In this document: piece by piece, positions 13,216 to 55,618 of the stretch
Position numbering within the stretch: position 1 is the first letter of the stretch
How the letters are laid out: each line of letters begins with the position of its first letter
Origin: Candidatus Latescibacterota bacterium
Lineage (GTDB): Bacteria > Latescibacterota > UBA2968
Assembly (NCBI GenBank): GCA_965204375.1
Contig: OZ241986.1
Span: 4,732,686-4,796,685, forward strand
Direction: 5' to 3'
Length of the DNA: 64,000 nt
Made by a program: the position numbers and the translations under genes
Notes under the pieces: model-generated
What the model was told of the DNA's origin: nothing
Seen by the model: only the letters and a program-made list of their open reading frames with translations
The model's database searches: none

Positions 13216-13893
13216 CTATCCCCTGATGTTTTCTGTGACGACATGACCGTCGAACAGGTGGATGATGCGATGCGCGTATCCCGCGTCGTGCGAATTGTGG
13301 GTCACCATGACGATTGTGGTGCCGTTTTTGTTCAGTTCGGTCAACAGATCCATGACCTCGTTGCCGTTTGCCGAGTCGAGGTTACCCGTTGGCTCGTCTG
13401 CAAGGATGATGTTGGGGTTTGCTATGACGGCTCTGGCCACGGCTACGCGCTGCTGCTGACCGCCGGATAGTTGTTGCGGGAAATGCTTTTCGCGGTGTTT
13501 GATGCCCATGTATTCGAGGGATTCATCCAGGCGCTGTTTGCGCTCGCTGGTTGGTAAGCCCAGGTATAACAGAGGCAGTTCCACGTTTTCGGCGACGGTC
13601 AGTTCGTCGATGAGGTTGAAACTTTGAAATACAAAGCCGATATTTGACTTGCGGGTGTTGGCTCTTTGCCGTTCGGTGTGTTTGGAGACTTCTTCTTCGT
13701 TCAGAAAGTATTCCCCACCGCTCGGATTGTCCAGCAGGCCGAGTACGTTCAAGAGTGTGGATTTGCCACATCCAGACGGTCCCATGATGGCGACAAATTC
13801 GCCTTCGTCAATATCTACGTTGACATTGTTCAGAGCCGTGGTTTCCACTTCTTCGGTGGTATAGACTTTCTGGAGGTTGACGGTTTTGATCAT
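13216..13893 (-). CDS. ABC transporter ATP-binding protein (MacB/LolD-type)
   Basis: Walker A GPSGCGKST, signature LSGGQQQR, Walker B ILADEPTGNLD. Start moved to MIKTVNLQKVY (ATG 13893; AAGAGGAG upstream). Confidence 0.9.
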   Translation of the reverse strand: MIKTVNLQKVYTTEEVETTALNNVNVDIDEGEFVAIMGPSGCGKSTLLNVLGLLDNPSGGEYFLNEEEVSKHTERQRANTRKSNIGFVFQSFNLIDELTVAENVELPLLYLGLPTSERKQRLDESLEYMGIKHREKHFPQQLSGGQQQRVAVARAVIANPNIILADEPTGNLDSANGNEVMDLLTELNKNGTTIVMVTHNSHDAGYAHRIIHLFDGHVVTENIRG

Positions 13894-13964
13894 TGTGAGA
13901 CTCCTCTTTAAGGTGAGATGTAAGACATAAGACATGAGACGTTAAAAGCATCTACTTTGAGACA

Positions 13965-16346
13965 CTATTCATACCGCAGCGATTCAACGGGATTGGCCAT
14001 AGCGACTTTGACCGCTTGATAGCTCACGGTGATACAGGCAATAATCAGAGACAAGACGCCAGCAAAAACAAAGATGCGCCACCCCATAGATGTGTGGTAC
14101 GCAAAATCGTTTAACCAGTCGTTCATAAAGTGATAGGCCAGCGGAGCGGCCAGTGCAAAGGCAACGACAACCAGCCTGATGAACTCTTTGGAAAGCAAAA
14201 TGACGAGATTGGGGATGGATGCGCCGAGGACTTTTCTAATGCCGATTTCCTTGGTGCGCTGTTCGGCGGTATAGGACGCCAGGCCGAACAGCCCCAGGCA
14301 AGAAATAAAAATGGCGAAAATGGCAAAAAAAGTAGCCAGCGTGCCCATCGTGCTCTCGTTGCGATACATCCTTTCAAACTGTTCGTCCTGAAAAGAAAAC
14401 TCAAAAGGACGGTCCGCATTGAATTTCTTGGATGCCCTCTCGATACCTGCAATAGCCTCAGCCGTTTGTCCCCCGGCAATACGCACAAATAAAAACTCGG
14501 TACGGGTGGGACTCAGAAGAATAATCAGCGGTTCGATAGCCGTGTACAGGGATTGAAAATGGAAATTTTTAACCACGCCAATAATTGGACCTTCGCGACC
14601 AAACCGCAGACGGGTGCCAACCGGGTTTTCCATGCCCATAGCCCGAGCCATTTCTTCATTCACAATAAAACTTCTGAGATCCCCGGGAAAATCTCTGGAA
14701 AATTCGCGCCCGTGAACAAGCTCCATGTGCAGGGTATTGACCACATCGTAGTTGGCCTGTAACCTGTGAAAAATATGTTCTGAATTGGGGTCTCTCCCCT
14801 CCCACATCGCATTTGTTCCGGTACTCGTCACCCTGAGCGGATTGTGTCCGGTACTGGTCACGCCGACAATGCCCGGCTGTTGCAAAAGTTCCTGTCTGAA
14901 AGCCTCATACTGTCTCTTAGCTGCACCCTCCAACCGCATATACACCAGATTATCGCGGTCAATTCCCAGATCTTTGTTTCGCATATACGCAATCTGCTCA
15001 TAAACCGTCAGCGTGCCGATAATGAGCAAAATAGAAAGACCAAATTGGAACACCACCAGCACCCGGCGCAACTGACTCGAACCCGACCCCGGTGTAAACG
15101 TACCGCGCAAAACAATGACGGGATTAAAATTGGAAAGATAAAAAGCGGGATAGCTTCCCGCGAGCACTCCGGTTACAATCGCAATACCAAAAAAAATGAG
15201 AAGAATCTCAATGCTGAAAAGATCGGTCGTGAGCGTCTGATTGATCAAGTCGCTAAACGACGGCAAAACCAGAATGACCATGATCAGCGCCAGAATGGCA
15301 GCGAACATGGTCATCATAAGCGATTCGCCCATAAACTGCCCAATCAGAATGGTTTTATGCGCCCCGACAGCCTTGCGAATCCCAATTTCTCGAGCGCGTT
15401 GCGTAGAACGCGCAGTCGATAGATTCATAAAGTTGATACTCGCAATCAGGATGATGAACGCGGCCACGACAATAAACATCTGCACATAGTCAATCCGACC
15501 ACCGACCAGTTTGCCATTCCTGTAGTCGGAATACAGATGCATATCCAGATAGGGCTGCAAAAAAGCATCGCTTGTGACCGTATCATCATTCTCCTTAATG
15601 ATATTTTTGATCTTGGCATTGAATTGATCGATATTGACATCCTTTTGCAACTGAACGTATAGCCGAAGGTGATTGACCGTCCACCGATAAAAACCGCGTT
15701 TATTGGCCAAATAAGATGCCATTGGCAAAATACAGTCATATCGCTGCGTCGAATTTACGGGCATGTTTTCATAAACCCCAGCCACCTTAAAACTTTTGTT
15801 ATCGTATTGCACCAGCGCGTGCGTATTATTCACCACAAAGATCTGTCCCATCGCGGTACTCCTCCAATCCTCTCCAAAATACTTCTCGGCCAGTCGCTCT
15901 GAGATGGCGATATTATCCGGTTCCGCAAGCGCGGTTTCGGGATCGCCCAAGATGAGGGGAAAGGTGAAAATCTTAAAAAAGGCCGGTCCAGCGTGATATC
16001 CGCTCTCCCGAAAAGTCTGTTCCCCATGCGTCAAATACATGGGCTGATTCCAGGTCACAAGCACGGTCTCGGTAACCTCTGGATATCGCTCTTCCAGCAG
16101 TTTGGCACTCGGATGGGGTATCGAAGACAGCGTCGAGATCTTATTCATGCCGTGATGATGCCGCATGAAGCGGTAGATTCGGTCGCCATTCACATGGAAT
16201 TGATCGTAGCTGAGTTCGTGGGCGATCCACATAAAAATTAAAAAACTACAGGTCAGGCCCACGGAAAGACCCGCAATATTGATTATAGAATGGGTTTTTT
16301 GCCCCAAAAAATTGCGGACCGCGATTTTGAAATAATTCTTAAACAT
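13965..16346 (-). CDS. MacB/FtsX-type ABC transporter permease, internally duplicated
   Basis: 793 aa. MFKNYFKIAVRNFLGQK plus a TM helix. SINFMNLSTARSTQRAREIGIRKAVGA and CLGLFGLASYTAEQRTKEIGIRKVLGAS. C-terminus NPVESLRYE. Confidence 0.85.
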   Translation of the reverse strand: MFKNYFKIAVRNFLGQKTHSIINIAGLSVGLTCSFLIFMWIAHELSYDQFHVNGDRIYRFMRHHHGMNKISTLSSIPHPSAKLLEERYPEVTETVLVTWNQPMYLTHGEQTFRESGYHAGPAFFKIFTFPLILGDPETALAEPDNIAISERLAEKYFGEDWRSTAMGQIFVVNNTHALVQYDNKSFKVAGVYENMPVNSTQRYDCILPMASYLANKRGFYRWTVNHLRLYVQLQKDVNIDQFNAKIKNIIKENDDTVTSDAFLQPYLDMHLYSDYRNGKLVGGRIDYVQMFIVVAAFIILIASINFMNLSTARSTQRAREIGIRKAVGAHKTILIGQFMGESLMMTMFAAILALIMVILVLPSFSDLINQTLTTDLFSIEILLIFFGIAIVTGVLAGSYPAFYLSNFNPVIVLRGTFTPGSGSSQLRRVLVVFQFGLSILLIIGTLTVYEQIAYMRNKDLGIDRDNLVYMRLEGAAKRQYEAFRQELLQQPGIVGVTSTGHNPLRVTSTGTNAMWEGRDPNSEHIFHRLQANYDVVNTLHMELVHGREFSRDFPGDLRSFIVNEEMARAMGMENPVGTRLRFGREGPIIGVVKNFHFQSLYTAIEPLIILLSPTRTEFLFVRIAGGQTAEAIAGIERASKKFNADRPFEFSFQDEQFERMYRNESTMGTLATFFAIFAIFISCLGLFGLASYTAEQRTKEIGIRKVLGASIPNLVILLSKEFIRLVVVAFALAAPLAYHFMNDWLNDFAYHTSMGWRIFVFAGVLSLIIACITVSYQAVKVAMANPVESLRYE

Positions 16347-16451
16347 TGGGATTCTCCAGTTCAGGTGTAAGTTGTGGCTTATCTTATTATAATCAATTTA
16401 CCTGATTTTGGGCGGTATTGAGTGGTCGTCTTACTTCTTATGTCTCACCTC

Positions 16452-17810
16452 TTACTGCTTTAAAACCAACTTGTCGATTTCTTCGTAATTGTCATAGGAC
16501 GATGTGACCACGCGCTCGCCGGGAGAGAGGCCAGCGAGGACTTCGAAGTATTCGGGGCTTTGGCGGCCTATGCGTACGTCGCGGCGTATGGCTTCGTCGC
16601 CTTCGACGACAAATACCCAGTTGCCGCCTGTTGTTTGATAAAATCCGCCGCGGGGGAGCAAGAGGGCTTCTTCGGGTGCGTCGAGTTCCAGACGTATCTG
16701 TTCTGTTTGACCGCGCCGGATGCTTTGAGGTGTCGCATCGACAAAATCCATATCGACTTCAAATTGTCCTTCTACGACTTCGGGAAAGACCCGACGGATT
16801 GTGAGGTCATACGTTTCATCGCCGATTTCAATGGTGCCTTTGAGTCCCTTTGTGATTCGCGTGATGTAAAATTCATCGATGCCCACCCGCATCTTGTAGG
16901 CGTCGAGTACATCGACCTGACCAATGCGCCTTCCCCTGTTCATCAACTGACCGATTTCTGCATTTAATTGGGATAATTGTCCAGCAATGGGGGCGCGCAC
17001 GGTCAGGTTTTCCAATGGACGGCGCACATGTTCCAATTGTCGTTGCAAGCTTCTGGCGCTCGTGTCCAGTGCAGCGAGTTGGTTGATGCGATACAGCGAG
17101 TCCTGGCGTACTGTTTCCAATGCAAATGACCTGCGTTTCTGATCGTTTTGATATCGATCTCGCGCACCTTCAAACAGGTCTTGGGAAGTCAGTCCGCGTT
17201 CATATAAAACTTTCTGCTTTTCGTGTTGGCGTTCTGTCTCCCGCAAGTTCAATTCAACGCGCATCAGTTCCTGGCGGTTGCGAATGGCCCGATTTTCCAG
17301 ATTCAACCGCGTGTTTTCCATGTTGTTGATTTGTTCGAACAAGCGGGCTTCTTGGGTTAAAATATTTTGTTCCAGGGTGGGATTCGACAATTTCAAAATG
17401 GGCATGCCTTTTTCGACCATGGTCCCTTCTTCCAGGAAGATTTCCTCTATTTGTCCGCCTTCGAGTGCGTCGATATAATAGGTTTGTATCGGCAATACGG
17501 TGCCGCGCTGGACGGTAAATTCCTGAAAGGGACCGCGCGTGACTTCTGAGATGGTAATCCGATCGACCTGTACATTGAGCCGGGCGCTGTGGTCGCCAAA
17601 GATCGCCATGTAGATTACGGCACACACAAATATGGCGATTCCGCTTATGGTCGCAATGCGCTTTGGTGTCCATACTTTCTTTTCGACCCTGCGGTCCATG
17701 CCGTCTTGACCCGTGGCTTCTGTTGCCGGTTGGGACGATGAAGAACCGCTGCCGACAAAACTGGGTACGGCTTTCTTACTCGGTGCATCATCTCGTTCGG
17801 GTGTTGACAT
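16452..17810 (-). CDS. HlyD/MacA-type periplasmic adaptor (membrane fusion protein)
   Basis: N-terminal TM anchor, a long coiled-coil-like segment (LEQNILTQEARLFEQINNMENTRLNLENRAIRNRQEL...), then beta-barrel-like C-terminal domains. Start set at MSTPERDD (ATG 17810) with GAGGA upstream. Confidence 0.75.
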   Translation of the reverse strand: MSTPERDDAPSKKAVPSFVGSGSSSSQPATEATGQDGMDRRVEKKVWTPKRIATISGIAIFVCAVIYMAIFGDHSARLNVQVDRITISEVTRGPFQEFTVQRGTVLPIQTYYIDALEGGQIEEIFLEEGTMVEKGMPILKLSNPTLEQNILTQEARLFEQINNMENTRLNLENRAIRNRQELMRVELNLRETERQHEKQKVLYERGLTSQDLFEGARDRYQNDQKRRSFALETVRQDSLYRINQLAALDTSARSLQRQLEHVRRPLENLTVRAPIAGQLSQLNAEIGQLMNRGRRIGQVDVLDAYKMRVGIDEFYITRITKGLKGTIEIGDETYDLTIRRVFPEVVEGQFEVDMDFVDATPQSIRRGQTEQIRLELDAPEEALLLPRGGFYQTTGGNWVFVVEGDEAIRRDVRIGRQSPEYFEVLAGLSPGERVVTSSYDNYEEIDKLVLKQ

Positions 17811-17935
17811 GTTTATATCCTCTATCCAAAAGTTTGGTGTATCATAGAATGCTGAATGGGGAAAATAGTCATACTTTGAACAATATTCAACTTTGTTTTG
17901 CGTCAATGTGCCTCTATCCTATCCATTCTCGATTT

Positions 17936-20362
17936 TTACTCATCTCGCAAGGCATCAATGGGATTGGATCGCGCGGCGCGAATGGCTTGCATGCTTACGG
18001 TTCCAAAGGCGATGATCAGGGCCATTATCGCGCTTGCGACAAATGGCAAGACATTTAAATCTGTCTGATAGGCAAACCCGGAGAGCCAGTCGCGCATCAG
18101 ATAGTAGGCGATTGGCCAGGCGATGAGATTGGCAAGTAGAATGAGCAATATAAATTCGCGGGAGAGTAGCATCACCAGATGAGATGTGGATGCGCCCAGT
18201 ACCTTCCGCACACCAATTTCTTTGGTGCGAGATTGAACCATGAATGCGGCCAGTCCGAACAGTCCCAAACAGGCTACAAAAATTGCCAGTAGTGAAAACA
18301 CGCCGAGCATTTTACCAGTGAGCCGTTCGTTGAAATAGTACCGCTGTATGATCTCGTCCAAAAATATATATCGAAAGGGTGCGTCTGGCACAAAGCGTTT
18401 CCACTGTGTTTCGAGAAATGACAGGGTTTGCGCGGTGTTTTCTGGTCGGACGCGCAGGGCCAGGGAATAAAATAGCCTCCAACGGGCTACGAATCCCATG
18501 GGGGCGATTTCTTCTCGTAGCGTCAAGCTGTGGTAGTCTTTTACGACGCCAATTACGGTCAGGGTTTGGTTGTTAAATGCTGCTGGCGTCTCGATCTGTT
18601 TGCCAATCGGGTCGTCCTCCCAGCCGAGCAGGCGCACGGCTGTTTCGTTCAAAATAATTGCCTGAGAGGTGTCGCTGGCAACATCGGCTGAAAAGACGCG
18701 ACCGCGAAGCACGGGAATGTCGAATATTTCAAAGAACGAATCATCTACCTCGTTTATGCGAATTGTCCGTTCTTTTGTGCGGTCTCCATCGGGCCAGATC
18801 AGTCGCGGTCGTCCACCGTATCCAGAAATGTCGTATCTCAATGCCGATGCGCTGAGGATATTGGGGTGTTCGAGAAATACCTGTTTCACCGTCTGGTGGC
18901 GTGCCGAAAGGCGCATTTGTGGGGCAAATTCATGCTCGCGATCATGAGCGAAGATTGGCACACTTACAATGTGATCGCGCGTGAAACCCATATTTTTGGT
19001 TTCTATATATCGCAGTTGTTGATAAACCACCAGGGTGCAGATCACCAGCAAGATGGACATGCCGAACTGAAAAATCACGAGTCCTTTCTTCAGTCCTGTG
19101 GAACCCGATGAGGAAGACGCCCTACTTTTTAGTGCTGTTACCGGACTAAAGGATGAGAGGAAGAACGCCGGATACCATCCTGCCAGCAATCCGACTACCA
19201 AGGTTAATGCCAGTGCCGCCGGCGCACCTATTATTACTGTAGCCGCGTTGAGGTGTAAATTGCCGCGTACAAATTGGTTGAATAAGGGCAGGCATAACTC
19301 GACCAGTGCCAGGGCAATCAGCAGGGCGACGGAGGTTAAAAGCAGAGATTCAGTTAAAAATTGAATCATCAGTTGTGGACGATGCGCGCCGACCACTTTT
19401 CGCACGCCTACTTCGCGCTTGCGGGTGACAGCGCGAGCAGTTGCCAGATTTGTAAAGTTCACGCATGCAATGACCACTACGATCAGCCCGATAGCCACCA
19501 GTATGTAAATTTGTTGTATGGGGCTGTTGGCAGCCGGGTTAAAATCGGATTCGCCATACAGGTACACGCGGTGCAGGGACTGTAGATGATAGGTGTTTTT
19601 TGCCGCAACTTCATCTCCCATATATTGTTTGATCAACGGCTGCATTTTTGTTTGCAGGGTTTCTGCGTTTTGTCCTGTTTTTAATAGTACGTATGTGTTT
19701 ACTGGACGCCACGATTGCCTGGGTAGCCACATTATCCACGGCGTTTTTCCTACGGAGGGTATTGTGGTTGTGAGTAAGTGAAAATGAAGGTCTGATGAGC
19801 GTTGTGGTGCCTTTACGATACCTGTTACTGTGTACTCGCCTGGAAAAATGCGATTGTCAACAGAAACTGTTTGGCCCATCGGGTCCGTATCGCCAAATAA
19901 ATGTTGCGCCATGTCGTCAGTTATGACCACAGAGTAGGGTGTGCGAAATGCGGTTTCTGGATCGCCTTTTATGAGGGGAAAATCGAACACGTCCAGAAAG
20001 TTGTCATCTATCAGTGCCAGGGTATATCGATTTTTGCGTTTGCCGTATTGTGCAGACACAAGCCACTGCCAGATACGCACCGTTGTTTCTACTTCGGGAA
20101 ATGTTTCTTTCAACACAGGTCCGAGTGCGCCTGATGTGCCTTCTTCATAAGTTGTTTGCGTACTGCTGCGCTTTTCTCGAATCACTTTGTAAATGCGGTC
20201 GCCCAAGGTGTGTGAGCGATCTACTGCAAACTCTTGTTGGATGTACAACAGGATCAAGATGCCACACGCCAGCCCAATGGCAAGTCCCAGTACATTGATG
20301 GTTGTGTACAGTTTGTGCCGCATCAAATTGCGGATCGCAACAGTCAGGTAATTTTTGATCAT
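17936..20362 (-). CDS. MacB/FtsX-type ABC transporter permease, internally duplicated (subfamily A)
   Basis: Start at MIKNYLTVAIRNLMRHKLY (ATG 20362). CVNFTNLATARAVTRKREVGVRKVVGA and CLGLFGLAAFMVQSRTKEIGVRKVLGAS. C-terminus NPIDALRDE. Very close to 34301-36730 and 39129-41558. Confidence 0.85.
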   Translation of the reverse strand: MIKNYLTVAIRNLMRHKLYTTINVLGLAIGLACGILILLYIQQEFAVDRSHTLGDRIYKVIREKRSSTQTTYEEGTSGALGPVLKETFPEVETTVRIWQWLVSAQYGKRKNRYTLALIDDNFLDVFDFPLIKGDPETAFRTPYSVVITDDMAQHLFGDTDPMGQTVSVDNRIFPGEYTVTGIVKAPQRSSDLHFHLLTTTIPSVGKTPWIMWLPRQSWRPVNTYVLLKTGQNAETLQTKMQPLIKQYMGDEVAAKNTYHLQSLHRVYLYGESDFNPAANSPIQQIYILVAIGLIVVVIACVNFTNLATARAVTRKREVGVRKVVGAHRPQLMIQFLTESLLLTSVALLIALALVELCLPLFNQFVRGNLHLNAATVIIGAPAALALTLVVGLLAGWYPAFFLSSFSPVTALKSRASSSSGSTGLKKGLVIFQFGMSILLVICTLVVYQQLRYIETKNMGFTRDHIVSVPIFAHDREHEFAPQMRLSARHQTVKQVFLEHPNILSASALRYDISGYGGRPRLIWPDGDRTKERTIRINEVDDSFFEIFDIPVLRGRVFSADVASDTSQAIILNETAVRLLGWEDDPIGKQIETPAAFNNQTLTVIGVVKDYHSLTLREEIAPMGFVARWRLFYSLALRVRPENTAQTLSFLETQWKRFVPDAPFRYIFLDEIIQRYYFNERLTGKMLGVFSLLAIFVACLGLFGLAAFMVQSRTKEIGVRKVLGASTSHLVMLLSREFILLILLANLIAWPIAYYLMRDWLSGFAYQTDLNVLPFVASAIMALIIAFGTVSMQAIRAARSNPIDALRDE

Positions 20363-20419: not shown

Positions 20420-20435
20420 TGCAATAATCGTGCCA
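20420..20435 (-). promoter_or_regulatory. sigma-54 promoter (-24/-12)
   Basis: Minus strand TGGCACGATTATTGCA, a perfect match to TGGCAC-N5-TTGCW, 57 nt upstream of ATG 20362. Confidence 0.8.
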
Positions 20436-20499
20436 AAACAATCAAGTACTGAAATAACAACATGTTATGAAATATTGCTTAAAATTGATAGGTTGAATA

Positions 20500-20538
20500 G
20501 TGTCCGATTTTGATACAGTAGTGTCCGAAAATGAACAC
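20500..20538 (-). promoter_or_regulatory. 39-bp two-site upstream activating sequence (putative enhancer-binding-protein site), copy 1
   Basis: GTGTCCGATTTTGATACAGTAGTGTCCGAAAATGAACAC, identical in four copies. It lies 64 nt upstream of the -24 element. Confidence 0.7.
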
Positions 20539-20542
20539 TTAA

Positions 20543-20793: not shown

Positions 20794-23274
20794 TTACTCC
20801 GTCCGCAAAGCATCCACTGGATTCGTGCGTGCGGCTTTGAGTGCTTGATAGGTCATGGTTGTAAGTGCGAGCAAGAGCGCGAGAGCACCGCCTATGAGAA
20901 AATACATAAGGTGTAGATCGATGCGATAGGCGAAGTCCTGCAACCATCTGCTCGAAAACAGATAGGCTATTGGACAGGCTATTGCACAGGCGATGATTAC
21001 GAGTTTGACAAATTCTCTGGATAACAACCCAAAAATACTGAATACCGATGCGCCCAGAACTTTCCGTATGCCAATTTCTTTTGTTTTTTGTTCTGCGCGA
21101 AACGATATCAGGCCGAGCAGTCCCAGGCAGGCTACGAAGATGGTCAGTCCGGAAAATACTGCCAATGCATTCCCCGTGCGGATTTCATTTTGATAACGCA
21201 CGCGTGTCAGGTCATCATTCAAGAACCAGAAAGTGCATGGAATTTGTGGTAAAAATTGGTGCCATGTTTTCTCTATAAATGCGAGGGTTTCCGGTATGTT
21301 CTGTGTGCCCAGTTTGAGGTAGAGGTGTTTGGCGCCTCCCGTAAAAAGTCTGAATACAACGGGCCGGATGGCATTGTGCAATGTTTGGACGTGAAAATCT
21401 TTCATCACACCTACCACATATCCCTCGGGTCCATTTTTTTCCTTAAAACGCCTGCCAATTGGATCGTCCCATCCGAGATGTCTTGCGGCTGTTTCATTTA
21501 AGATAAGTGGTCGGCCTTTTTCTCGATATGCTTGCACTAATTCTCGATATTTTTCTAACTCCGCACGACTTTCTATTCTTTCTGGCCACTTTGGTGGTTC
21601 TGGTGCCAGACGGCCTGCTGCCAGTTCGATGTTGAAGAAGTCCAGAAAATCGCGGTCAATATCAAACAGACCCATCTGCCAGTCGGCGTCATCGGCTCGA
21701 AACGTTTCTGTTGTATGATATCCACCTTGATGAAAACGCGTGGCTGTTGCGTTCAAAATATTCGGGTGTGCCATGAACACCTGTTTTACCGTGGGAATGC
21801 GCCATCTCAGATCTTCTGAACTACCGTGATGTAGTTGCCGAGAATAGATGAAAAGCGGTATGCCGACTACGAGTTCTTTGTCAAATCCGAGGTCTTTATT
21901 TCGGATATATGCCAGTTGCTCCTGTACGACAACAGTACCTGTGATGAAAGCAATCGAAATTGCAAATTGGAAGATCACGAGTGCTTTTCGCAGCCCAACG
22001 TGTTTCGATCCCGGTATCCAGTCCCCTTTCATTACCTGCGTGGGCAAAAAGGATGAGAGTACAAATGCGGGATAACTACCCGCGAGCACACCAACGCCCA
22101 GCCCAAACCCGATCAATCCGATCATCCACCACAGATTTTCAGTTCTGTGCAATATCAGATCTCGTTGAATAAAACTGTTAAACCGTGGCAGGACCAGTTC
22201 AACTAAGGCGAGTGCTACTATCATTGCAACGAGTGCCACCAGTACTGATTCGCCTAAAAATTGTCCGATCAATTGCTGGCGAGATGCACCCACCACTTTT
22301 CGTAATCCCACCTCGCGTGCTCTGGTGGATGAGCGCGCCGTTGAGAGATTCATAAAATTGACACAGGCGAGTACGAGAATAAAACCCGCGACGAGTCCAA
22401 AGGCATATATCTGGGTGATATCGCCATGGTCCCTAAACTGAAGCCCCAAATCCGGATGGGTATAAAGATGCACGCGCGTGAGGGGTTGCACTATGTACCG
22501 GGTCGTTTGGCGCACGTCATCACCCATGTATCGCGTTATCAAATCGGGCAGTTTTTGCTGTAGTGTGCGGTGGTCGTAGCCTTCGGGCAACAGGAGATAT
22601 GTGAAAAAGGGACGATAAGCGCCCGTGGGTTGCCACATAGACCATAGGTCCGCCAACTGGCCCCTTGGCGTGGCGGTCAGGCAATCGAAATAAAAGGTCG
22701 AGTTGGGCGGAAAGTCGCGCACAATACCCGTTACAAAGTATGTCACCGTGCCGCTCAGTTGTTCGTGATCCACTTGCAGTGTTTTTCCAATTGGATTCTG
22801 ATTTTGGAAGAATTTGCGCGCCATTGATTCTGTTAGCACTATAGAACCCGGTTGGGTCAATGCCGTGCCTGGGACACCGATTACAAATGGGATTGTAAAT
22901 ACATTGAAAATTTCCCGATCTGCGACACATACATCTTGCTGAAAAAAGCGGTCGTCGGTTTTGACCCATGAGGTGAGTATTTGTGTGCGGATGGCTTCCT
23001 GTACTTCGGGAAAATCGCGCTTTAATGCCGGTGCCAGTGCGCCAGATGCACGCGGATTGACCGATGTTGTATTTTCCATTGAAACTGTGCGGATGACGCG
23101 ATAGATGCGGGGTGCATTGGCATGGTGTCGGTCGTAGCTAAATTCATATTGAATGTAGAGGGCGATCAAAATGACGCACGCCATTCCAGTTGCCAGGCCC
23201 AGGATATTAATCGTTGTCAAGCCCCTGTTTTTCAGCAAGGTGCGAATGGTAGCTATGAGATAACTGCGAAACAT
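20794..23274 (-). CDS. MacB/FtsX-type ABC transporter permease, internally duplicated
   Basis: 826 aa. MFRSYLIATIRTLLKNRGL plus a TM helix. CVNFMNLSTARSSTRAREVGLRKVVGA and CLGLLGLISFRAEQKTKEIGIRKVLGAS. C-terminus NPVDALRTE. AGGAGG RBS. Confidence 0.85.
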   Translation of the reverse strand: MFRSYLIATIRTLLKNRGLTTINILGLATGMACVILIALYIQYEFSYDRHHANAPRIYRVIRTVSMENTTSVNPRASGALAPALKRDFPEVQEAIRTQILTSWVKTDDRFFQQDVCVADREIFNVFTIPFVIGVPGTALTQPGSIVLTESMARKFFQNQNPIGKTLQVDHEQLSGTVTYFVTGIVRDFPPNSTFYFDCLTATPRGQLADLWSMWQPTGAYRPFFTYLLLPEGYDHRTLQQKLPDLITRYMGDDVRQTTRYIVQPLTRVHLYTHPDLGLQFRDHGDITQIYAFGLVAGFILVLACVNFMNLSTARSSTRAREVGLRKVVGASRQQLIGQFLGESVLVALVAMIVALALVELVLPRFNSFIQRDLILHRTENLWWMIGLIGFGLGVGVLAGSYPAFVLSSFLPTQVMKGDWIPGSKHVGLRKALVIFQFAISIAFITGTVVVQEQLAYIRNKDLGFDKELVVGIPLFIYSRQLHHGSSEDLRWRIPTVKQVFMAHPNILNATATRFHQGGYHTTETFRADDADWQMGLFDIDRDFLDFFNIELAAGRLAPEPPKWPERIESRAELEKYRELVQAYREKGRPLILNETAARHLGWDDPIGRRFKEKNGPEGYVVGVMKDFHVQTLHNAIRPVVFRLFTGGAKHLYLKLGTQNIPETLAFIEKTWHQFLPQIPCTFWFLNDDLTRVRYQNEIRTGNALAVFSGLTIFVACLGLLGLISFRAEQKTKEIGIRKVLGASVFSIFGLLSREFVKLVIIACAIACPIAYLFSSRWLQDFAYRIDLHLMYFLIGGALALLLALTTMTYQALKAARTNPVDALRTE

Positions 23275-23365: not shown

Positions 23366-23381
23366 AGCAATTACTGTGCCA
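23366..23381 (-). promoter_or_regulatory. sigma-54 promoter (-24/-12)
   Basis: Minus strand TGGCACAGTAATTGCT, 91 nt upstream of ATG 23274. Confidence 0.8.
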
Positions 23382-23445
23382 AAAACTTCTTGTCTATATT
23401 TTACAAGTAGTTATGAGAATTTGTGTCATGAGCACAGTTCAATAA

Positions 23446-23484
23446 GTGTCCGATTTTGATACAGTAGTGTCCGAAAATGAACAC
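23446..23484 (-). promoter_or_regulatory. 39-bp two-site upstream activating sequence, copy 2
   Basis: Identical 39-mer, 64 nt upstream of the -24 element. Confidence 0.7.
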
Positions 23485-23499
23485 TTAGCCAATAAAAAT

Positions 23500-23528: not shown

Positions 23529-23575
23529 GATGTATTAGCCGTAGAACCATTATTTTGCAATGGCGTTACCCCGGT

Positions 23576-41642: not shown

Positions 41643-41658
41643 AGCAATTTTTGTGCCA
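41643..41658 (-). promoter_or_regulatory. sigma-54 promoter (-24/-12)
   Basis: Minus strand TGGCACAAAAATTGCT, 84 nt upstream of ATG 41558. Confidence 0.8.
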
Positions 41659-41722
41659 AAAGGATCTTTTCTATGTTTTACAAGGGGTTATGAAAATTTG
41701 TGCTCTGAATACAGTTTAATAA

Positions 41723-41761
41723 GTGTCCGATTTTGATACAGTAGTGTCCGAAAATGAACAC
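41723..41761 (-). promoter_or_regulatory. 39-bp two-site upstream activating sequence, copy 3
   Basis: Identical 39-mer, 64 nt upstream of the -24 element. Confidence 0.7.
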
Positions 41762-42192: not shown

Positions 42193-44529
42193 TCACTCAT
42201 CTCTCAACGCATCCGCCGGGTTTGCGCGTGCGGCTTTGAAGGCTTGGGTGGTGACGGTTGTGAGTACGACGAGGAACATCGCTACGCTGCCGAGTAAGAA
42301 TGCGTCCACTCCCAATTCAGTGCGGTAGGCGAATATTTGCAACCATTGATTGGTCGCGTAATAGGCGATGGGGAATGCGATGAGGCTTGATAGGGCGATG
42401 TAGAGGACAAATTCTCGTGAGAGCAGAGATAGGATTTGCGCCTGGGATGCGCCTAAGACTTTGCGAATGCCGATTTCTTTGGTGCGTCGTGCGACAGCTA
42501 ATGCCGCCAGTCCGAATGCGCCGAGTGCGGCGATGAAGATGGCGAATCCCGTGGCGTATTGGATCATCTGGTTCCAGCGTTCTTCTTTTTTGTATTGTTT
42601 GTCTAAGTGTTCATCGATGAATGAGAAGTTGAATGTCTGGTTGGGGGCGACTTCTGCCCATTTTTCTTTTATAAATGCGATGGTGCCCGGCACGTTTTCG
42701 GGGTGAATGCGAACCAACAAGCGTCCAGTGTATATACCGAGTGGCAGGACAGCGGGTGCAATTTTGTGATGCAGGGAGTTAAAATGGAAATCGCGGACAA
42801 CACCGATGATGGTTTTGTCTCGTCCATGTTTGATTGTTTTGCCAACGGGATCTTCTATGCTGAATTTTTGGACGAGTGCCTCGTTGACAAGGATTGATTC
42901 TTTGGCATCTGTTGGAAATTCTCTGTCGTATTCTCGACCTGCAACCAACTTTATGCCGAGTGTTTTGAATAGGTCGTAATCAATGCGGATGTTCTCAACG
43001 TATTGCTTTGGACTTCCTTCATAAGTTACATCAGCCCGGGAACTCATGGTGCTGCTTAGATAATGATTGAGCCAGGTCGTGCTGATCACTGAGGGATGTG
43101 ACAGCAGTTCATCCCGAAAAACGTTTGGCAGGGTTTTGTTTTCTCTTTGCAATGCACGGGTCTGAATAGCGACGACGTGTTCGGTTTGATACCCCAGGGG
43201 TTTGGTTCGCAAAAAGGTGAGTTGTTGGGCCATCATCAGGGTGGTGATGATGAAGAATATGGATAGGGCAAACTGAAAAATGACCAGTATTTTGCCAAAA
43301 CGATTGCCCGTTTTAATTTGCAATCTGCTCGCGATGATTTGGGTTGGCTGTAGGCGGGATAGGATAAAGGCGGGATACCCCCCTGCTGTGATGCCCACGA
43401 TGGTGACGAGAAGAATGAGAAAGGCGAGTGTTGTAAGATTGAGGCCGTCGCTCAGGGATAGGGATTTTCCGGCCAGATTGTTGAATGTTGGCAATGTGAG
43501 TTCTGCTATGGCAATGCCAACGATGAGCGCGATGAGGATGAGTAAGAGCGATTCGCCGATAAATTGGTTTGCGATCTGCATGCGCCCTGCGCCGACGACT
43601 TTTCGCAAGCCGACTTCTCGCGCCCGCGTTGCCTGTCGTCCGAGGGTTAAGGTGATGAAGTTGACACAGGCGATAAATAGCACGAGGATAGCAATGCCCG
43701 ATAGAATGTATGAATAAACTGGATTACTGCTATTACGCACCCCCATATTTTGAGCAAAATGCATTTGGGTGATGGGTAGAAGTTTGAGTTGGTTTTCGCT
43801 CTTTTCACCCCACCAGATTTTGGTCAATCTGGGAAATTGCTGTTCGACACTATTTGGAGATACATTTTGGGGGAGCATCATATACGTAGCCAGATAGTAT
43901 ATATTCCATTGGTTTTTGACTTGGACCCAGGAGGCCCGTTCAAATGGCAGTAGTGCGTCAAATTGAATTGTGGAATTTTTGGGTACGTTTTTTACAATGC
44001 CCGTGATGGTGTAGTTTTGAATTTCCTCTCCGCGCTGAATTGGAAGCACTTCTCCAACCGGGTTGGCGTTGTTGAAATACTTCTGCGCGGTTTTTTCTGT
44101 TATGATTACAGAATACTTGTCCTGGAGTGCTTGAGTGAAATCGCCGTGAATGACTGAGAAAGAAAAAATGTCGAGGAAGTTGGAATCGACAAACCCCAAA
44201 TTCGCTTGAAAAGCGCGATCTTGTGTACCAATTTTACCCCCGCTACCTCTGAAACGAACCGTCTGCATTGCGGGGAATGCTTCTGTTAATGCGGGTCCGA
44301 GGGGATCTGGTGTTATACCAGAAACCCGATAGATGCGGTCGGCGTTTTTGTGAAAGGTGTCGTAGGTCCATTCGTTGTAGGTAAAGAGGTAGGTGAGGAT
44401 GCAGAAGGCGAGGCCAATGGCAATGCCGATGATGTTAATGGCAGAGTAGATGCGGTGTCTGGCGAGGTTGCGGATCGCTGTTTTCAGGTAGCTACTGAAT
44501 AAAGATATTTTAGCACCTGCTTTGAACAT
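42193..44529 (-). CDS. MacB/FtsX-type ABC transporter permease, internally duplicated (subfamily B)
   Basis: Start at MFKAGAKISLFSSYLKTAIRNLARHR (ATG 44529, GGAGG upstream). Both FtsX modules are present. C-terminus NPADALRDE. Confidence 0.85.
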   Translation of the reverse strand: MFKAGAKISLFSSYLKTAIRNLARHRIYSAINIIGIAIGLAFCILTYLFTYNEWTYDTFHKNADRIYRVSGITPDPLGPALTEAFPAMQTVRFRGSGGKIGTQDRAFQANLGFVDSNFLDIFSFSVIHGDFTQALQDKYSVIITEKTAQKYFNNANPVGEVLPIQRGEEIQNYTITGIVKNVPKNSTIQFDALLPFERASWVQVKNQWNIYYLATYMMLPQNVSPNSVEQQFPRLTKIWWGEKSENQLKLLPITQMHFAQNMGVRNSSNPVYSYILSGIAILVLFIACVNFITLTLGRQATRAREVGLRKVVGAGRMQIANQFIGESLLLILIALIVGIAIAELTLPTFNNLAGKSLSLSDGLNLTTLAFLILLVTIVGITAGGYPAFILSRLQPTQIIASRLQIKTGNRFGKILVIFQFALSIFFIITTLMMAQQLTFLRTKPLGYQTEHVVAIQTRALQRENKTLPNVFRDELLSHPSVISTTWLNHYLSSTMSSRADVTYEGSPKQYVENIRIDYDLFKTLGIKLVAGREYDREFPTDAKESILVNEALVQKFSIEDPVGKTIKHGRDKTIIGVVRDFHFNSLHHKIAPAVLPLGIYTGRLLVRIHPENVPGTIAFIKEKWAEVAPNQTFNFSFIDEHLDKQYKKEERWNQMIQYATGFAIFIAALGAFGLAALAVARRTKEIGIRKVLGASQAQILSLLSREFVLYIALSSLIAFPIAYYATNQWLQIFAYRTELGVDAFLLGSVAMFLVVLTTVTTQAFKAARANPADALRDE

Positions 44530-44612
44530 TTTACACCTCCTATAAATACAGAATTGCAAAACCACTGGAAATTCACGATATTTAAAATTATATCGTCTTC
44601 TAAACTCCAACT

Positions 44613-44852
44613 ATGAGAGATAAAATGCACAAAATCTCCCTAACAGAAGCAGAAACCTGCCTTGCTGAACTGGTTAAAGAAGCGACAAGTGGCGAAGAAG
44701 TCATTATTACTCAGACAGATGGCTCTGTAGTTAAGCTTGTGGCAGTCTCGTCCAAACAACCAGTTCCAAAATTCGGCAGTGCAAAAGGGCTTGTTAAAAT
44801 GTCAGATGATTTTGACGAACCTCTTGAAGATTTCGAGGATTATGCCCTGTGA
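44613..44852 (+). CDS. small antitoxin-type protein (Phd/YefM-like or VapB-like)
   Basis: 79 aa. ISLTEAETCLAELVKEATSGEEVIITQ followed by an acidic tail FGSAKGLVKMSDDFDEPLEDFEDY. GTGA overlap with the downstream PIN gene. The start could instead be ATG 44625. Confidence 0.55.
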   Translation: MRDKMHKISLTEAETCLAELVKEATSGEEVIITQTDGSVVKLVAVSSKQPVPKFGSAKGLVKMSDDFDEPLEDFEDYAL

Positions 44853-45241
44853 AGTTGCTTCTCGACACGCACACGTTTCTTTGGTTTATCAATGGGGATG
44901 CCAATCTCAGTGCCGCTGCCAGACAACTAATCGAAAATCATGAGAATGAGCGCCTATTGAGCATTGCGAGCCTGTGGGAGATGGCAATAAAGGTCAGTAT
45001 TGGAAAACTGGAACTGAACATTTCCTTTGCTAACTTATTGGAACAACAAATCACCGGAAATGCGATTGATCTCCTTCATATTAGTCCTGCCCATCTCGAT
45101 GTTCTCAAAACCCTTTCCTTTCATCATCGCGACCCCTTTGACCGCCTCATCATTGCTCAAAGTATTGTTGAAAATGTCCCGATTTTAAGTCGAGATATAA
45201 CATTTGATTTATATCCGATTGAACGAAGGTGGACGACCTGA
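44849..45241 (+). CDS. vapC: PIN-domain toxin (VapC family)
   Basis: 130 aa, GTG start. LLLDTHTFLWF, SIASLWEMAIK and HRDPFDRLIIAQS are typical VapC blocks. Confidence 0.75.
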   Translation: MKLLLDTHTFLWFINGDANLSAAARQLIENHENERLLSIASLWEMAIKVSIGKLELNISFANLLEQQITGNAIDLLHISPAHLDVLKTLSFHHRDPFDRLIIAQSIVENVPILSRDITFDLYPIERRWTT

Positions 45242-45250
45242 CCTGATAGC

Positions 45251-47665
45251 TCACTCATCTCGCAACGCATCCACGGGATTGCGGCGCGCGGCTTTCAGTG
45301 TTTGAAAATTCACTGTCAACAACGCGACTAACAGGGTCAGTATCCCGGCGAGGCCAAAAACGCCTATGCTCAGTTCAATGCGATATGCGAAGTTGGTCAA
45401 CCATTGATTCATCATCCAGTAGGCAACAGGATAGGCGATGATGTTGGCGACCAGTAGTAACTTGATAAAATCTCTGGAAAACAACCACATCACATGATGG
45501 ACAGAAGCCCCCAGCACTTTCCGAATCCCAATCTCCTTTGTCCGCCGCGCAACCGCCAGCGACGCCAGTCCGAATAATCCCAAACACGAAAGCAGGACAG
45601 CCACGAGAGCCGAATGGCTCAATACGCGAAACCAATAGACCTCATTGGCATACTGTTGATTCAGGTTTTCATCCAGAAACGAGAGTTCAAAAGGCATATT
45701 GGGTGCAACTTTTTCCCAGGTGTTTTTGAGCATCCCAATCGTTTCAAAAATTTGGTCTGAGCGCAGGCGAACCAGCAAAGATGGATAAGTTCTGTATTTT
45801 TCCATCACCAATGCCACCGGCTCAATTGGTCGATGCAAAGATTCTATGTGAAAATCGCGCACCACACCAATAATAATGGGGTCTTCAACGCCTTCCCGGC
45901 TATAGCCTGCATTCCAACCAAAACCCGTCAGCGTTTCTCCTACCGGATTTTCAAAGAATTGCTTTGCCAGCGTTTCGTTGATCAAGATTGCTTTAGTCAT
46001 ATCTGACGGATGATCTTTTGAAAAATCTCGGCCCTCGACCAGTGAAATTTCTAACGTGGATAGATAATCGACATCTACGCCAATCACCCTGAAGGTAATC
46101 TTTCTGCCATCAGGCAATTTATAAGGGTACGTGGAATAACCCATTACTGAGGGTGGACGATCCGTAATTGTAACACCCGCAATGCGTGAGTCGTTTACAA
46201 TGGCTTCCTTATAGGGTTTTGCCAACTGTCGACGACCTGTCTGAATAACAACGACCTGCTCTTTGTTAAAGCCCAGGTTTTTGTTACGCACATAATCCTG
46301 CTGTTGAATCATCACACCTGTGCCAATGATGAGGGCTATGGATGTCGCATATTGCAGAATGATTAACGTGCGCGTCAAAAAGTTGCGCCCACCAAGGCGC
46401 GCTTCGCCTTTTATGGCTAAAACAGGTTGAAACCGCGATAAGACCAGAGCGGGATAACTGCCAGCGATTAGTCCGACAATGCCGAGCAGGAGCAGCAATA
46501 CCCACCAATCGCCAAAATAAGCGAGGGTCAATTTTTGATGTACAAATCCGTTGAATACGGGCAAAAGGATTTCGGCAAGTGCAGTGCCCACGAGTAAGCC
46601 CAAAAAGCACAACACCAGTGCTTCGCTCCAGAACTGCTGAATAATCTGACCTCGCTTGGCGCCTACCACTTTGCGCAATCCCACTTCTTTTGCCCGCCCG
46701 GAAGATTCTGCGACCGATAGGGTAATAAAGTTGCTGCACGCAATGAGCAAGACCAGCCATGCAAGCCCCCACAAGATATAAACCCCTGTTGGATTGCCCT
46801 GCGGTCCATAGCGATTGGGAATGTCTGTATTCCAGTACACATCCGTCAGGGGTTGAAGAATAAAGTTAAATGGTTCGCTTTTGGATCTATCTTCCCGCAA
46901 CTTTTCTTTTTTTGACCAATGGTTGAGATCGTCAATTACGCGAGAAGCATTTGTTTCATCTATTTGCACAAAAATCCATGCACAGGCACCACGGCTTCTT
47001 GCAAGAGGGAAACCTTTTTCAGCTTTTGTCGAAACCAACACATCGAATTGAAGACTCGATGTTGTAGGCACATCTGCCATAACACCTGTCACGACAAATT
47101 GCTTATTGTTTGCGGTCAGTGCTTGCCCTATTAGCGCGTTGTAATCCTGTACATCTCCAAAAAATTTGTGTGCAATGGTTTCAGTAATCACCATGCCATC
47201 TGGTCGGGTAAGTACAGTCTCTGGATTCCCGACCAGCAGTGGAAACGTGAACATTTGAAAGAAATTTGTGCTCACAATCCCAATGTCCTGTGGGAATGTC
47301 TTTTCATCCCTTGTGATTTTCGCCCACCTACTCTCCCATCCACTACTGCGAATCCGCATAAATGCACAGGCTTGTTCAACACCAGGCATTTCATCTTTTA
47401 ACGCATCGACAACCCAAAGCAGATGCACAGTATCCCAGAGATTAAATGGAATCGCCTTCCCGTCCGGTTGAAGTCTTTGCGCTACCAACCGAAACATCTG
47501 ATCGTGGTTCTCGTGAAACTGATCGCGTGACCATTCGTGTTTGACAAACAGAGCCATCAAGATACAGCAGGCAAGTCCCAGCCCGAGGCCGAACACATTG
47601 ATGAATGTGTAGAGCTTCTTTCGCATTAAATTGCGAATCGCAACGGTTAGATAATTTTTGATCAT
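45251..47665 (-). CDS. MacB/FtsX-type ABC transporter permease, internally duplicated
   Basis: Start at MIKNYLTVAIRNLMRKKLY (ATG 47665). CSNFITLSVAESSGRAKEVGLRKVVGA and CLGLFGLASLAVARRTKEIGIRKVLGAS. C-terminus NPVDALRDE. Confidence 0.85.
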   Translation of the reverse strand: MIKNYLTVAIRNLMRKKLYTFINVFGLGLGLACCILMALFVKHEWSRDQFHENHDQMFRLVAQRLQPDGKAIPFNLWDTVHLLWVVDALKDEMPGVEQACAFMRIRSSGWESRWAKITRDEKTFPQDIGIVSTNFFQMFTFPLLVGNPETVLTRPDGMVITETIAHKFFGDVQDYNALIGQALTANNKQFVVTGVMADVPTTSSLQFDVLVSTKAEKGFPLARSRGACAWIFVQIDETNASRVIDDLNHWSKKEKLREDRSKSEPFNFILQPLTDVYWNTDIPNRYGPQGNPTGVYILWGLAWLVLLIACSNFITLSVAESSGRAKEVGLRKVVGAKRGQIIQQFWSEALVLCFLGLLVGTALAEILLPVFNGFVHQKLTLAYFGDWWVLLLLLGIVGLIAGSYPALVLSRFQPVLAIKGEARLGGRNFLTRTLIILQYATSIALIIGTGVMIQQQDYVRNKNLGFNKEQVVVIQTGRRQLAKPYKEAIVNDSRIAGVTITDRPPSVMGYSTYPYKLPDGRKITFRVIGVDVDYLSTLEISLVEGRDFSKDHPSDMTKAILINETLAKQFFENPVGETLTGFGWNAGYSREGVEDPIIIGVVRDFHIESLHRPIEPVALVMEKYRTYPSLLVRLRSDQIFETIGMLKNTWEKVAPNMPFELSFLDENLNQQYANEVYWFRVLSHSALVAVLLSCLGLFGLASLAVARRTKEIGIRKVLGASVHHVMWLFSRDFIKLLLVANIIAYPVAYWMMNQWLTNFAYRIELSIGVFGLAGILTLLVALLTVNFQTLKAARRNPVDALRDE

Positions 47666-50289: not shown

Positions 50290-51001
50290 TCAGGTAATAT
50301 ACATTCCATCGGTTAGGGGCGCGCATCCCGGGGTGAGGTTCAAATGGCAGTAGTATGTCAAATTGAAGTGTGGAGTTTTTGGGCACGTTTTTCACGATGC
50401 CCGTGATGGTGTAGTTTTGAATTTCTTGATCGAAGTACTGAATTGGAAGCACTTCTCCAACCGGGTTGGCGTTGTTGAAATACTTCTGAGCGGTTTTTTC
50501 TGTTATGAGTGCTGAATACTTGTCTTGAAGGGCCTGGGCAGGATCGCCATGAAGGATTGGAAAAGAGAAAATATCGAAGAAGTTGGGATCGGCAAATCCC
50601 ACATGTGCTTCAAAAATGCGATCTTCTGTACCAATTTTTCCCGTTAGGTACGGAGAATGATAGACACGAACTGTCTGCATTGCGGGGAATGCTTCTGCTA
50701 TTGCGGGTCCGAGGGGGTCTGGCGATACACCAGAAGCGCCGGGAGAAACCAGATAGATATTGTCGGCGTTTTCGTGAAAGGTGTCATAGGTCCATTCGTT
50801 TTGGACAAAGAGGTAGGTGAGGATGCAGAAGGCGAGGCCGATGGCAATGCCGATGATGTTAATAGCAGAGTAGATGCGGTGTCTGGCGAGGTTGCGGATC
50901 GCCGTTTTCAGATAGCTACTGAATAAAGATATTTCAGTGAACATTGGTCTCTCCTGTGTATGGTGTGGCGTAAACTCTATATTTTATTTTATCAGGTGCG
51001 A

Positions 51002-53936: not shown

Positions 53937-53980
53937 TTTATTCTCCTTGGCTGTCCCAGGCGGTCAGGACGAAGCCTGTT

Positions 53981-55500: not shown

Positions 55501-55516
55501 AGCAATAAACGTGCCA
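55501..55516 (-). promoter_or_regulatory. sigma-54 promoter (-24/-12)
   Basis: Minus strand TGGCACGTTTATTGCT, 80 nt upstream of ATG 55420. Confidence 0.8.
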
Positions 55517-55579
55517 AAAGATTCAAATGTTGAAATAACAATGAGTTATGAAAATTGCTTGAAATTGACTAATTGGAAA

Positions 55580-55618
55580 GTGTCCGATTTTGATACAGTA
55601 GTGTCCGAAAATGAACAC
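55580..55618 (-). promoter_or_regulatory. 39-bp two-site upstream activating sequence, copy 4
   Basis: Identical 39-mer, 63 nt upstream of the -24 element. Confidence 0.7.

Follow-up and report, generated by a model that had tools for sequence, protein, structure and literature searches.

A 64,000-nucleotide stretch of contig OZ241986.1 from a Candidatus Latescibacterota bacterium (hereafter the window, numbered from its first letter) carries four copies of a 119-bp module, designated a to d, in which an identical 39-mer is paired with a -24/-12 promoter element. All four modules lie on the minus strand in front of operons of MacB/FtsX-type permeases, one of which is headed by a TlpA-like gene. 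The modules are most likely sigma-54 promoters with tandem upstream activating sequences (UAS) for a conserved NtrC-family regulator that is encoded elsewhere in the genome. This sigma-54/NtrC-type enhancer reading, put forward in an earlier note made from the letters of the window, holds under two kinds of evidence: conservation of the site in a motif-first survey of related genomes, and enrichment of its palindrome beside one orthologous family of regulators. The sequence architecture of the modules, their conservation and the genomic association of site and regulator gene are observed features of these genomes.

Architecture of the putative promoter modules

The 39-mer GTGTCCGATTTTGATACAGTAGTGTCCGAAAATGAACAC occurs exactly four times in the window (plus-strand starts 20500, 23446, 41723 and 55580), in agreement with the four 39/39-identical sites described earlier; a search of the window that tolerated up to three mismatches gave no additional match, and 100 shuffles gave 0 matches, so that none is expected by chance. 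The pattern TGGCAC-N5-TTGCW has exactly four matches as well, all on the minus strand and with GG and GC 10 nt apart, where shuffles predict 0.09, and the two elements are always paired. The spacer between the 39-mer and the -24 element measures 64, 64, 64 and 63 nt in copies a, b, c and d, and the end of the -12 element is followed by the ATG after 57, 91, 84 and 80 nt, respectively, which bears out the fixed spacing and the distances to gene starts (63–64 and 57–91 nt) given in the earlier note. The ATGs behind the modules are preceded by a GGAGG-like ribosome-binding site.

The 39-mer is composed of two sites in tandem: a distal, strong palindrome (GTGTYCG-N4-CGRACAC) and a proximal, weaker variant with a 5-nt centre. 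The pair of imperfect palindromes recognized earlier is therefore present, but its two members are not equal, as only the distal one is a good palindrome. Relative to the predicted transcription start, the distal site is centred at about -120 and the proximal site at about -100; the centres are thus ~20.5 bp, or roughly two helical turns, apart, so that both sites would face nearly the same side of the DNA helix, as had been proposed. Further palindromes at up to four mismatches are no more numerous in the window than in shuffles, and only the four distal palindromes and one two-mismatch match inside the permease gene 13965-16346 rise above the shuffle background.

The spacers fall into the two types noted earlier, with identities of 48/64 between a and d and 50/64 between b and c, compared with 35–38/64 for all other pairs. 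A third conserved block, TTTCATAAC (the reverse complement of GTTATGAAA), keeps a constant position in all four copies, again as described. The proteins encoded first behind modules a and c are 86% identical to each other, the one behind b is 40–42% identical to both, and the gene behind d is unrelated (blastp). The identity of the 39-mer therefore points to selection or gene conversion as what has kept the site, and not to recent duplication of entire loci.

Strong, U-tailed stem-loops lie on the minus strand directly upstream of UAS a and UAS b only (20539-20600 and 23485-23550; 16-bp and 10-bp stems; z-scores -7.3 and -5.1), and the regions upstream of these two sites are identical at 74/100 positions. 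The stem-loops are probably terminators that shield the sigma-54 promoters from read-through. No RNA family reached the Rfam gathering thresholds in a scan of the whole window.

Conservation of the module in related genomes

One genome per species was scanned with a degenerate 39-mer pattern in which 21 bases were specified, and the scan returned at least 112 stretches of 8 kb; all counts from this motif-first survey are lower bounds and refer to the matches listed. The exact 39-mer was present at least 41 times and a one-base variant at least 35 times. Subtraction of four matches in truA-like coding sequences and one ambiguous match (L076) from the 116 pattern matches leaves at least 111 non-coding instances, which belong to about 23 assemblies labelled Latescibacterota, one metagenome-assembled genome (MAG) of the Rhodothermales (L069), and four contigs binned as Poribacteria or Ekhidna (L045, L061, L068 and L099). 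By tally, several genomes contribute at least 5–11 instances each. A -24/-12 element was found 62–64 nt downstream of the 39-mer in 96 of the 111 instances with the relaxed pattern (72 with the strict one) and on the opposite side in none of them, so the positional link between the two elements extends beyond the window to about 23 species. In a positional profile of the 98 unique instances among the matches listed, only three blocks stand out as conserved, namely the UAS, a block in the middle of the spacer and the promoter. The mid-spacer block, TTTTCnTAAC-N3-TTGTAAAA, extends from -40 to -17 relative to the T of TGGCAC and is kept throughout these 98 instances. It is a plausible DNA-bending site, as guessed in the earlier note, possibly of the integration host factor (IHF) type.

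The regular placement of the promoter bears on the alternative that the 39-mer is an operator at a sigma-70-type promoter next to which the -24/-12 matches are coincidental. The -24/-12 element stands at a fixed distance in 4/4 copies of the window as well as in the listed instances elsewhere, sigma-70-like hexamers near the modules occur no more often than in shuffles, and the regulator associated with the site (see below) has a sigma-54 interaction domain. These features make a sigma-70 operator extremely improbable.

The survey also addresses the possibility that the 119-bp module is a dispersed mobile or gene-converted cassette, whose identity would result from recent spread and whose link to the downstream genes would be incidental. 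The 39/39 identity of the copies and the recurrence of the exact 39-mer across genomes are compatible with such a cassette, as are the mosaic flanks (a/d and b/c share spacers, and a/b share the upstream hairpin), which suggest recombination between copies. Nevertheless, conservation is confined to three blocks that correspond to functional elements and the intervening DNA is variable, the modules keep a fixed orientation and a fixed distance to the start codon, no promoter among the 111 listed instances faces the other way, and the palindrome is kept beside the regulator gene in distant phyla in which the rest of the module is not. Moreover, the sole transposase of the window is unrelated to the modules. 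A mobile repeat, against which the earlier note had cautioned, is thus highly improbable for an element that is always oriented towards the next gene, and the reading as sigma-54 promoters with tandem UAS is preferred.

Across all 116 listed matches, before exclusions, the first downstream gene encodes a permease in 63 cases, an ABC ATPase in 12, an extracytoplasmic function (ECF) sigma factor orthologous to that of the window in seven, an HlyD adaptor in four and a TlpA-like protein in one; the other first genes appear by eye to encode mostly envelope or secreted proteins (TPR/Sel1-like repeats, lipoproteins). Permeases thus dominate, as expected for the regulon of permease operons envisaged earlier, but the targets also include ABC ATPases, HlyD adaptors, the ECF sigma factor and the TlpA-like protein. 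In at least six loci (L003, L019, L031, L040, L048 and L061), the gene that comes first after the UAS encodes the orthologue of this ECF sigma factor; with the two UAS copies of L003, these amount to at least seven instances, and five of the seven have a strict or near-consensus -24/-12 element. This arrangement points to a cascade in which sigma-54 would control an ECF sigma factor.

In four Terriglobia MAGs of the Acidobacteriota (L025, L033, L046 and L110), an apparent cross-phylum regulon with TolC was discarded since the sites fall inside truA-like coding sequences; the degenerate pattern matches the coding region itself (..YDG..F.GWQ.QP..VSVQGTLVSAFEHL..) and is a coding false positive. 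The matches binned as Poribacteria and Ekhidna were not accepted as independent phyla, because they come from the same sponge or coral samples and the ECF sigma gene of L061 is 72% identical to that of the window; these contigs are possibly misbinned.

A candidate regulator and kinase

A strict search for GAFTGA detected no bacterial enhancer-binding protein (bEBP) in the 112 motif-first loci, and only relaxed patterns (Walker A and B, the loop G[AS][FY][TS][GD]A, and FRxDLxYR) exposed regulators with a GAFTDA loop. With these signatures, bEBPs of 456–458 aa were found in L003, L069 and L109, where the UAS lies in the gap between the regulator gene and a divergent target gene, the product of which is an HlyD adaptor, a permease or an ECF sigma factor. 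These three loci are cases of what the earlier note had suggested looking for, bEBP genes next to another copy of the motif, and the regulator, which it had left without a name, can now be given as a candidate two-component pair. The three proteins consist of Response_reg, Sigma54_activat and HTH_8 domains (Pfam; E-values 1e-15 to 1e-69), and a gene for a histidine kinase of ~450 aa lies 3' of each regulator gene. At its N-terminus the kinase has two hydrophobic helices with no more than five residues between them, which implies that it lacks a periplasmic sensor domain. The sigma-54 contact loop of the regulator is GAFTDA or GAYTDA, compared with the canonical GAFTGA, and both forms are among the variants listed as expected to keep activity (PMC4641369).

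The regulator scores below all NCBIfam equivalog cut-offs (PrsR, 384.5 versus 502.6; AtoC, 370.6 versus 714; NtrC, 323.1 versus 558.6; ZraR, 318 versus 760), and among solved structures those of Aquifex NtrC1 and ZraR are the closest to it (4l4u, 1ny5 and 1ojl). Its orthologues are 67–78% identical, almost always 458 aa long, and distributed over Latescibacterota, KSB1, Handelsmanbacteria, Glassbacteria, Aminicenantes and Bacteroidota. Their helix-turn-helix (HTH) is nearly invariant across phyla, which fits the conserved site. Covariation of the HTH with half-site position 5 (C, A or T) was considered and gave no clear pattern; TRTSLYRRM tends to go with the A variant of the half-site, possibly through phylogeny alone.

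The regulator P0013, which is 76% identical to that of L109 and has 170 near-identical cluster members, is encoded together with its kinase at an unlinked locus of OZ253501.1, a closed sibling sponge-symbiont genome that carries the regulon. Autoregulation in the sponge-symbiont genomes was rejected, as the region upstream of the regulator gene contains no site. With a regulator gene that is unlinked and has no site of its own, the circuit of this lineage appears to act in trans on many promoters.

Association of the palindrome with regulator genes

An independent scan of metagenomes with an alignment of the regulator recovered 80 loci at 59–71% identity (L120–L199). When up to three mismatches are allowed, 41 of 73 loci have the palindrome GTGTCCG-N4-CGGACAC in the 400 bp that precede the regulator gene; the density of the palindrome is 1.39 per kb upstream of the regulator versus 0.033 per kb elsewhere in the loci, a 42-fold difference. 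In about 45 of the 80 loci, an operon of HlyD, ABC and permease genes, in this order, diverges from the regulator gene, which is followed by that of the kinase. The palindrome is present in 36 and absent from nine loci with this divergent operon, versus three and 16, respectively, without it (odds ratio 21, p = 2e-6). The upstream regions of the regulator genes also show the tandem, with the proximal site in the form GTGTCCG-N5-GAtACAc, and the pair of a strong and a weak site is itself kept across phyla. Of the 36 pump-operon loci with a site, 23 have the sequence GC-N10-CC, the reverse-strand form of a -24/-12 element, at a distance of 71–151 nt from the strong palindrome. The distances form classes of 71–76, 79, 82–87, 128–129 and 148–151 nt (85 nt in the window) that are roughly one, two and four helical turns apart, as looping dependent on the face of the helix would predict.

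Several observations weigh against the assignment of the modules to sigma-54 and to this regulator. Seven listed instances between an ECF sigma gene and a permease gene have no recognizable -24/-12 element; these sites, all from Latescibacterota (L014, L016, L024, L059, L066, L073 and L095), lack the element at 62–64 nt, are followed by a permease of ~845 aa, and have downstream sequences conserved among them; their promoters may be decayed or of a different type. Nine regulator loci with a divergent pump operon have no site at up to three mismatches, and the reverse-strand -24/-12 match is missing in 13 of the 36 pump-operon loci with a site. Within the mid-spacer block, the match to the IHF consensus (WATCAANNNNTTR) is limited to the 3+3-base core CAA-N4-TTA, on the reverse strand. 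Both rpoN and the candidate regulator are absent from the window, where Pfam scans of 40 open reading frames (ORFs), NCBIfam, and six-frame searches for bEBP signatures agree with the earlier statement that neither rpoN nor a sigma-54 AAA+ protein is encoded; an RpoN-box search of the fetched loci also returned no rpoN. Finally, the regulator gene of the sponge-symbiont lineage adjoins no site, so that its assignment there follows from orthology and the invariant HTH, and an unrelated bEBP of 1080 aa is encoded 3 kb from a site in L100.

The last two points would fit an alternative in which the modules are sigma-54 promoters with UAS and the 39-mer is bound, in the lineage of the window, by a different bEBP, either a paralogue or an unrelated protein. 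The large size of these families (8000 matches at E <= 1e-60) would agree with it. The L100 protein belongs to one sponge-symbiont genome, in which it is encoded behind a UAS-driven gene for an ABC ATPase (L100 4539-7781); it has a GAFTSA loop, a sigma-54 AAA+ region, a C-terminal HTH-like tail and an N-terminus that is repeat-rich and propeller-like by eye. It was rejected as the regulator, as it recurs at no other site-bearing locus, nor in the window. The 458-aa family, in contrast, adjoins the site in both the motif-first and the regulator-first searches and across phyla, and its near-invariant HTH includes the sponge-symbiont orthologue. A different bEBP is accordingly improbable, and the 458-aa family is retained as the candidate regulator of the tandem UAS.

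Proposed mechanism and implications

From the features described above we infer binding, looping, sigma-54 dependence, the signal and the extents of the operons. The 119-bp module would be a sigma-54-dependent promoter that carries its own enhancer. A single regulator of REC, sigma-54 AAA+ (GAFTDA) and Fis-type HTH domains would bind the 39-mer, the regulator and its kinase being encoded elsewhere in the genome. The kinase, with two transmembrane helices and no periplasmic domain, would phosphorylate the regulator, which would then assemble on both UAS sites. The intervening DNA would loop, aided by the A/T-rich block at about -55 acting as an IHF-like site or an intrinsic bend, and ATP hydrolysis would open the sigma-54 closed complex at TGGCAC-N5-TTGC. 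As the predicted output, an ECF sigma factor and a TlpA-like redox protein would be induced jointly with tripartite exporters of the MacB type, which combine an HlyD adaptor, an ABC ATPase and duplicated FtsX permeases. The inducing signal is probably an envelope-active or exported compound. The kinase signal or a constitutively active regulator would provide a practical handle, with which the whole pump set could be induced together.

Duplicated ADOP-like FtsX/MacB permeases are among the largest paralogous families in Acidobacteriota, Latescibacterota and their relatives. A broader, speculative reading, which we consider rather unlikely, holds that an ancestral NtrC-type pair with its divergent HlyD-ABC-FtsX operon, as seen in FCB-group phyla, was expanded in sponge-associated Latescibacterota, and that the kinase may sense pump activity. 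If true, the expansion would amount to a trans regulon with ten or more promoters per genome for dozens of ADOP-like permease paralogues and an ECF sigma factor, and the sensing of pump activity would represent Bce-like flux sensing in a diderm bacterium by a kinase without a periplasmic domain. One signal would then be the key to the function of large families of duplicated permeases.

The mechanism itself is textbook, applied here to a little-studied and much-expanded pump family in a sponge-associated bacterium. The earlier note knew of no description of MacB/FtsX-type permease arrays under sigma-54 control. Such control of FtsX-type permeases was predicted in an in-silico study of 2025 (PLoS One, PMC12316311), billed as the first such link, which reports for Bacteroidia, Opitutia and gamma-proteobacteria an excess of predicted sigma-54 promoters in front of the genes for COG0577 FtsX permeases and COG1136 ATPases. 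An activator, a UAS, a two-component partner, Latescibacterota and an expansion to several operons do not feature in the available part of that study, to whose claim of sigma-54 control over FtsX-type exporters the present system adds a concrete case. Literature on sigma-54 in connection with FtsX/Bacteroidetes, Latescibacteria, MacB/HlyD, MacAB and sponge symbionts yielded no description of the circuit, and the main text of Francke et al. 2011 makes no mention of FtsX, MacA, MacB, HlyD, efflux or Bacteroidetes. The assignment of regulator to site, the motif, the preservation of the tandem UAS across phyla and the expansion of the regulon in sponge-associated Latescibacterota thus appear to be new. 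The result also supplies a predicted cross-phylum binding motif for a widespread, unnamed regulator of the NtrC family.

Operons and neighbouring genes

Contigs of a Latescibacterota MAG (isolate p16x33bins.50) match the window at 96–97% identity; the features of the window are collected in Table 1. Operon a contains a MacAB-type trio of MacB_PCD + FtsX permease, ABC ATPase and HlyD-family adaptor, and its permease 17936-20362 is a duplicated MacB/FtsX protein (Pfam). No TolC gene was seen in the window. In operon c, ORF 39129-41558 has Pfam matches to MacB_PCD and FtsX, and the other three ORFs are called permeases by blastp homology only: 36753-39104 matches 42193-44610 at 79% identity, 34301-36730 matches 17936-20362 at 90%, and 31901-34282 matches several permeases at 41–43%. 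ORF 51573-53936 of operon d is a permease by homology alone (47% identical to 42193-44610; blastp). A permease of the window matches the ADOP model TIGR03434 over its full length with a score of 342.8, below the cut-off of 622.3, and agrees with it in architecture. An exact-protein look-up of the first permease found no record.

Table 1. Putative promoter modules and associated operons in the window
Feature	Position	Strand	Remarks
Copy a, distal strong UAS palindrome GTGTTCATTTTCGGACAC	20521..20538	-	2 mismatches to GTGTCCG-N4-CGGACAC
Copy a, proximal weak UAS CTGTATCAAAATCGGACAC	20500..20518	-	5-nt centre; form of weak site also in other phyla
Copy a, mid-spacer block ATATTTCATAACATGTTGTTATTT	20452..20475	-	candidate IHF-like site; centre about -55
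Copy a, -24/-12 element TGGCACGATTATTGCA	20420..20435	-	predicted start near 20409
Copy b, distal UAS palindrome	23467..23484	-	39-mer match
Copy b, proximal UAS site	23446..23464	-	39-mer match
Copy b, mid-spacer block AATTCTCATAACTACTTGTAAAAT	23398..23421	-	positional conservation
Copy b, -24/-12 element TGGCACAGTAATTGCT	23366..23381	-	predicted start near 23355
Copy c, distal UAS palindrome	41744..41761	-	39-mer match
Copy c, proximal UAS site	41723..41741	-	39-mer match
Copy c, mid-spacer block AATTTTCATAACCCCTTGTAAAAC	41675..41698	-	positional conservation
Copy c, -24/-12 element TGGCACAAAAATTGCT	41643..41658	-	predicted start near 41632
Copy d, distal UAS palindrome	55601..55618	-	39-mer match
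Copy d, proximal UAS site	55580..55598	-	39-mer match
Copy d, mid-spacer block AATTTTCATAACTCATTGTTATTT	55533..55556	-	positional conservation
Copy d, -24/-12 element TGGCACGTTTATTGCT	55501..55516	-	predicted start near 55490
Operon a	13216..20362	-	permease 17936-20362, HlyD adaptor 16452-17906, permease 13965-16346, ABC ATPase 13216-13935
Unit b, single duplicated permease gene	20794..23274	-	followed by terminator-like hairpin 20539-20600
Operon c, four tandem ORFs of ~800 aa	31901..41558	-	gaps of 18-24 nt (ORF map)
Operon c, ORFs	39129-41558, 36753-39104, 34301-36730, 31901-34282	-	
Operon d, predicted extent	42193..55420	-	TlpA/AhpC-like 53981-55420, permease 51573-53936, ECF sigma 51002-51580, further permeases
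Operon d, remainder	50249-50944 + 47688-49349, 45251-47695, 42193-44610	-	permease split by insertion sequence (first two segments), two permeases

The insertion sequence in operon d is an IS4/5-family element (49349-50301) with a DDE_Tnp_1 transposase gene (49399-50265) and 27-nt terminal inverted repeats, and it interrupts a permease gene. Downstream of operon a, a gap of 488 nt (12728-13215) without UAS or -24/-12 element lies upstream of a second ABC ATPase gene (12053-12727), whose homologues (61–63% protein identity) are direct UAS/sigma-54 targets in at least ten loci of other genomes. A LytTR-type pair (His_kinase, then Response_reg-LytTR) is encoded at 26533-28355, between modules b and c, and has neither a site nor a sigma-54 promoter of its own. 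A ThsB-like TIR-domain protein is encoded directly upstream of module d (56035-56571; Thoeris ThsB_TIR, E = 2.9e-24). The segments 2178-5136 and 7064-8821 encode a Fic/DOC protein, an AAA_22 protein with a sub-threshold PD-(D/E)XK (PDDEXK_9) match and a PcfJ-like protein, a patch beside the pump arrays that may be mobile or defence-related.

Comparison with known systems

At the enteric glnAp2 promoter, NtrC, a regulator with REC, AAA+ and Fis-type HTH domains, acts by DNA looping from two dyad sites located ~100–140 bp upstream of TGGCAC-N5-TTGC. The modules of the window resemble glnAp2 in their paired dyad sites and promoter type, and the candidate regulator has the same domain order (Pfam). 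However, the half-site is GTGTCCG here and TGCACC for NtrC, the targets are exporters instead of nitrogen-assimilation genes, and the regulator gene is unlinked in this lineage. In nifH-type promoters, NifA binds a UAS of the form TGT-N10-ACA, and IHF binds midway between the UAS and the -24 element. The strong site of the modules reads G-TGT-N10-ACA-C, and the A/T-rich block with CAA-N4-TTA also lies midway between UAS and -24 element; nevertheless, the input domain of the candidate regulator is REC whereas that of NifA is GAF, and GTGTCCG is much more specific than TGT.

The best curated relatives of the regulator are AtoC, ZraR and PrsR, all below the equivalog cut-offs, which recalls the ZraSR and AtoSC systems. 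The present pair differs from these in that the kinase has no periplasmic sensor domain and the divergent partner operon is of the HlyD-ABC-FtsX type. In the BceRS-BceAB systems of Firmicutes, a kinase without an extracellular sensor domain is encoded beside the ABC exporter with FtsX domains that it regulates. The topology of the kinase is similar here, as a functional analogy only: BceR is of the OmpR type and acts at sigma-70 promoters, with neither sigma-54 nor an HlyD adaptor, and transporter-mediated sensing in the present system would be pure conjecture. The permeases, at ~800 aa with two MacB_PCD + FtsX units, are similar to ADOP (TIGR03434). The HlyD adaptor and the MacB-like ATPase encoded in one operon are reminiscent of MacAB-TolC, although the ATPase is a separate polypeptide here, unlike that of E. 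coli MacB.

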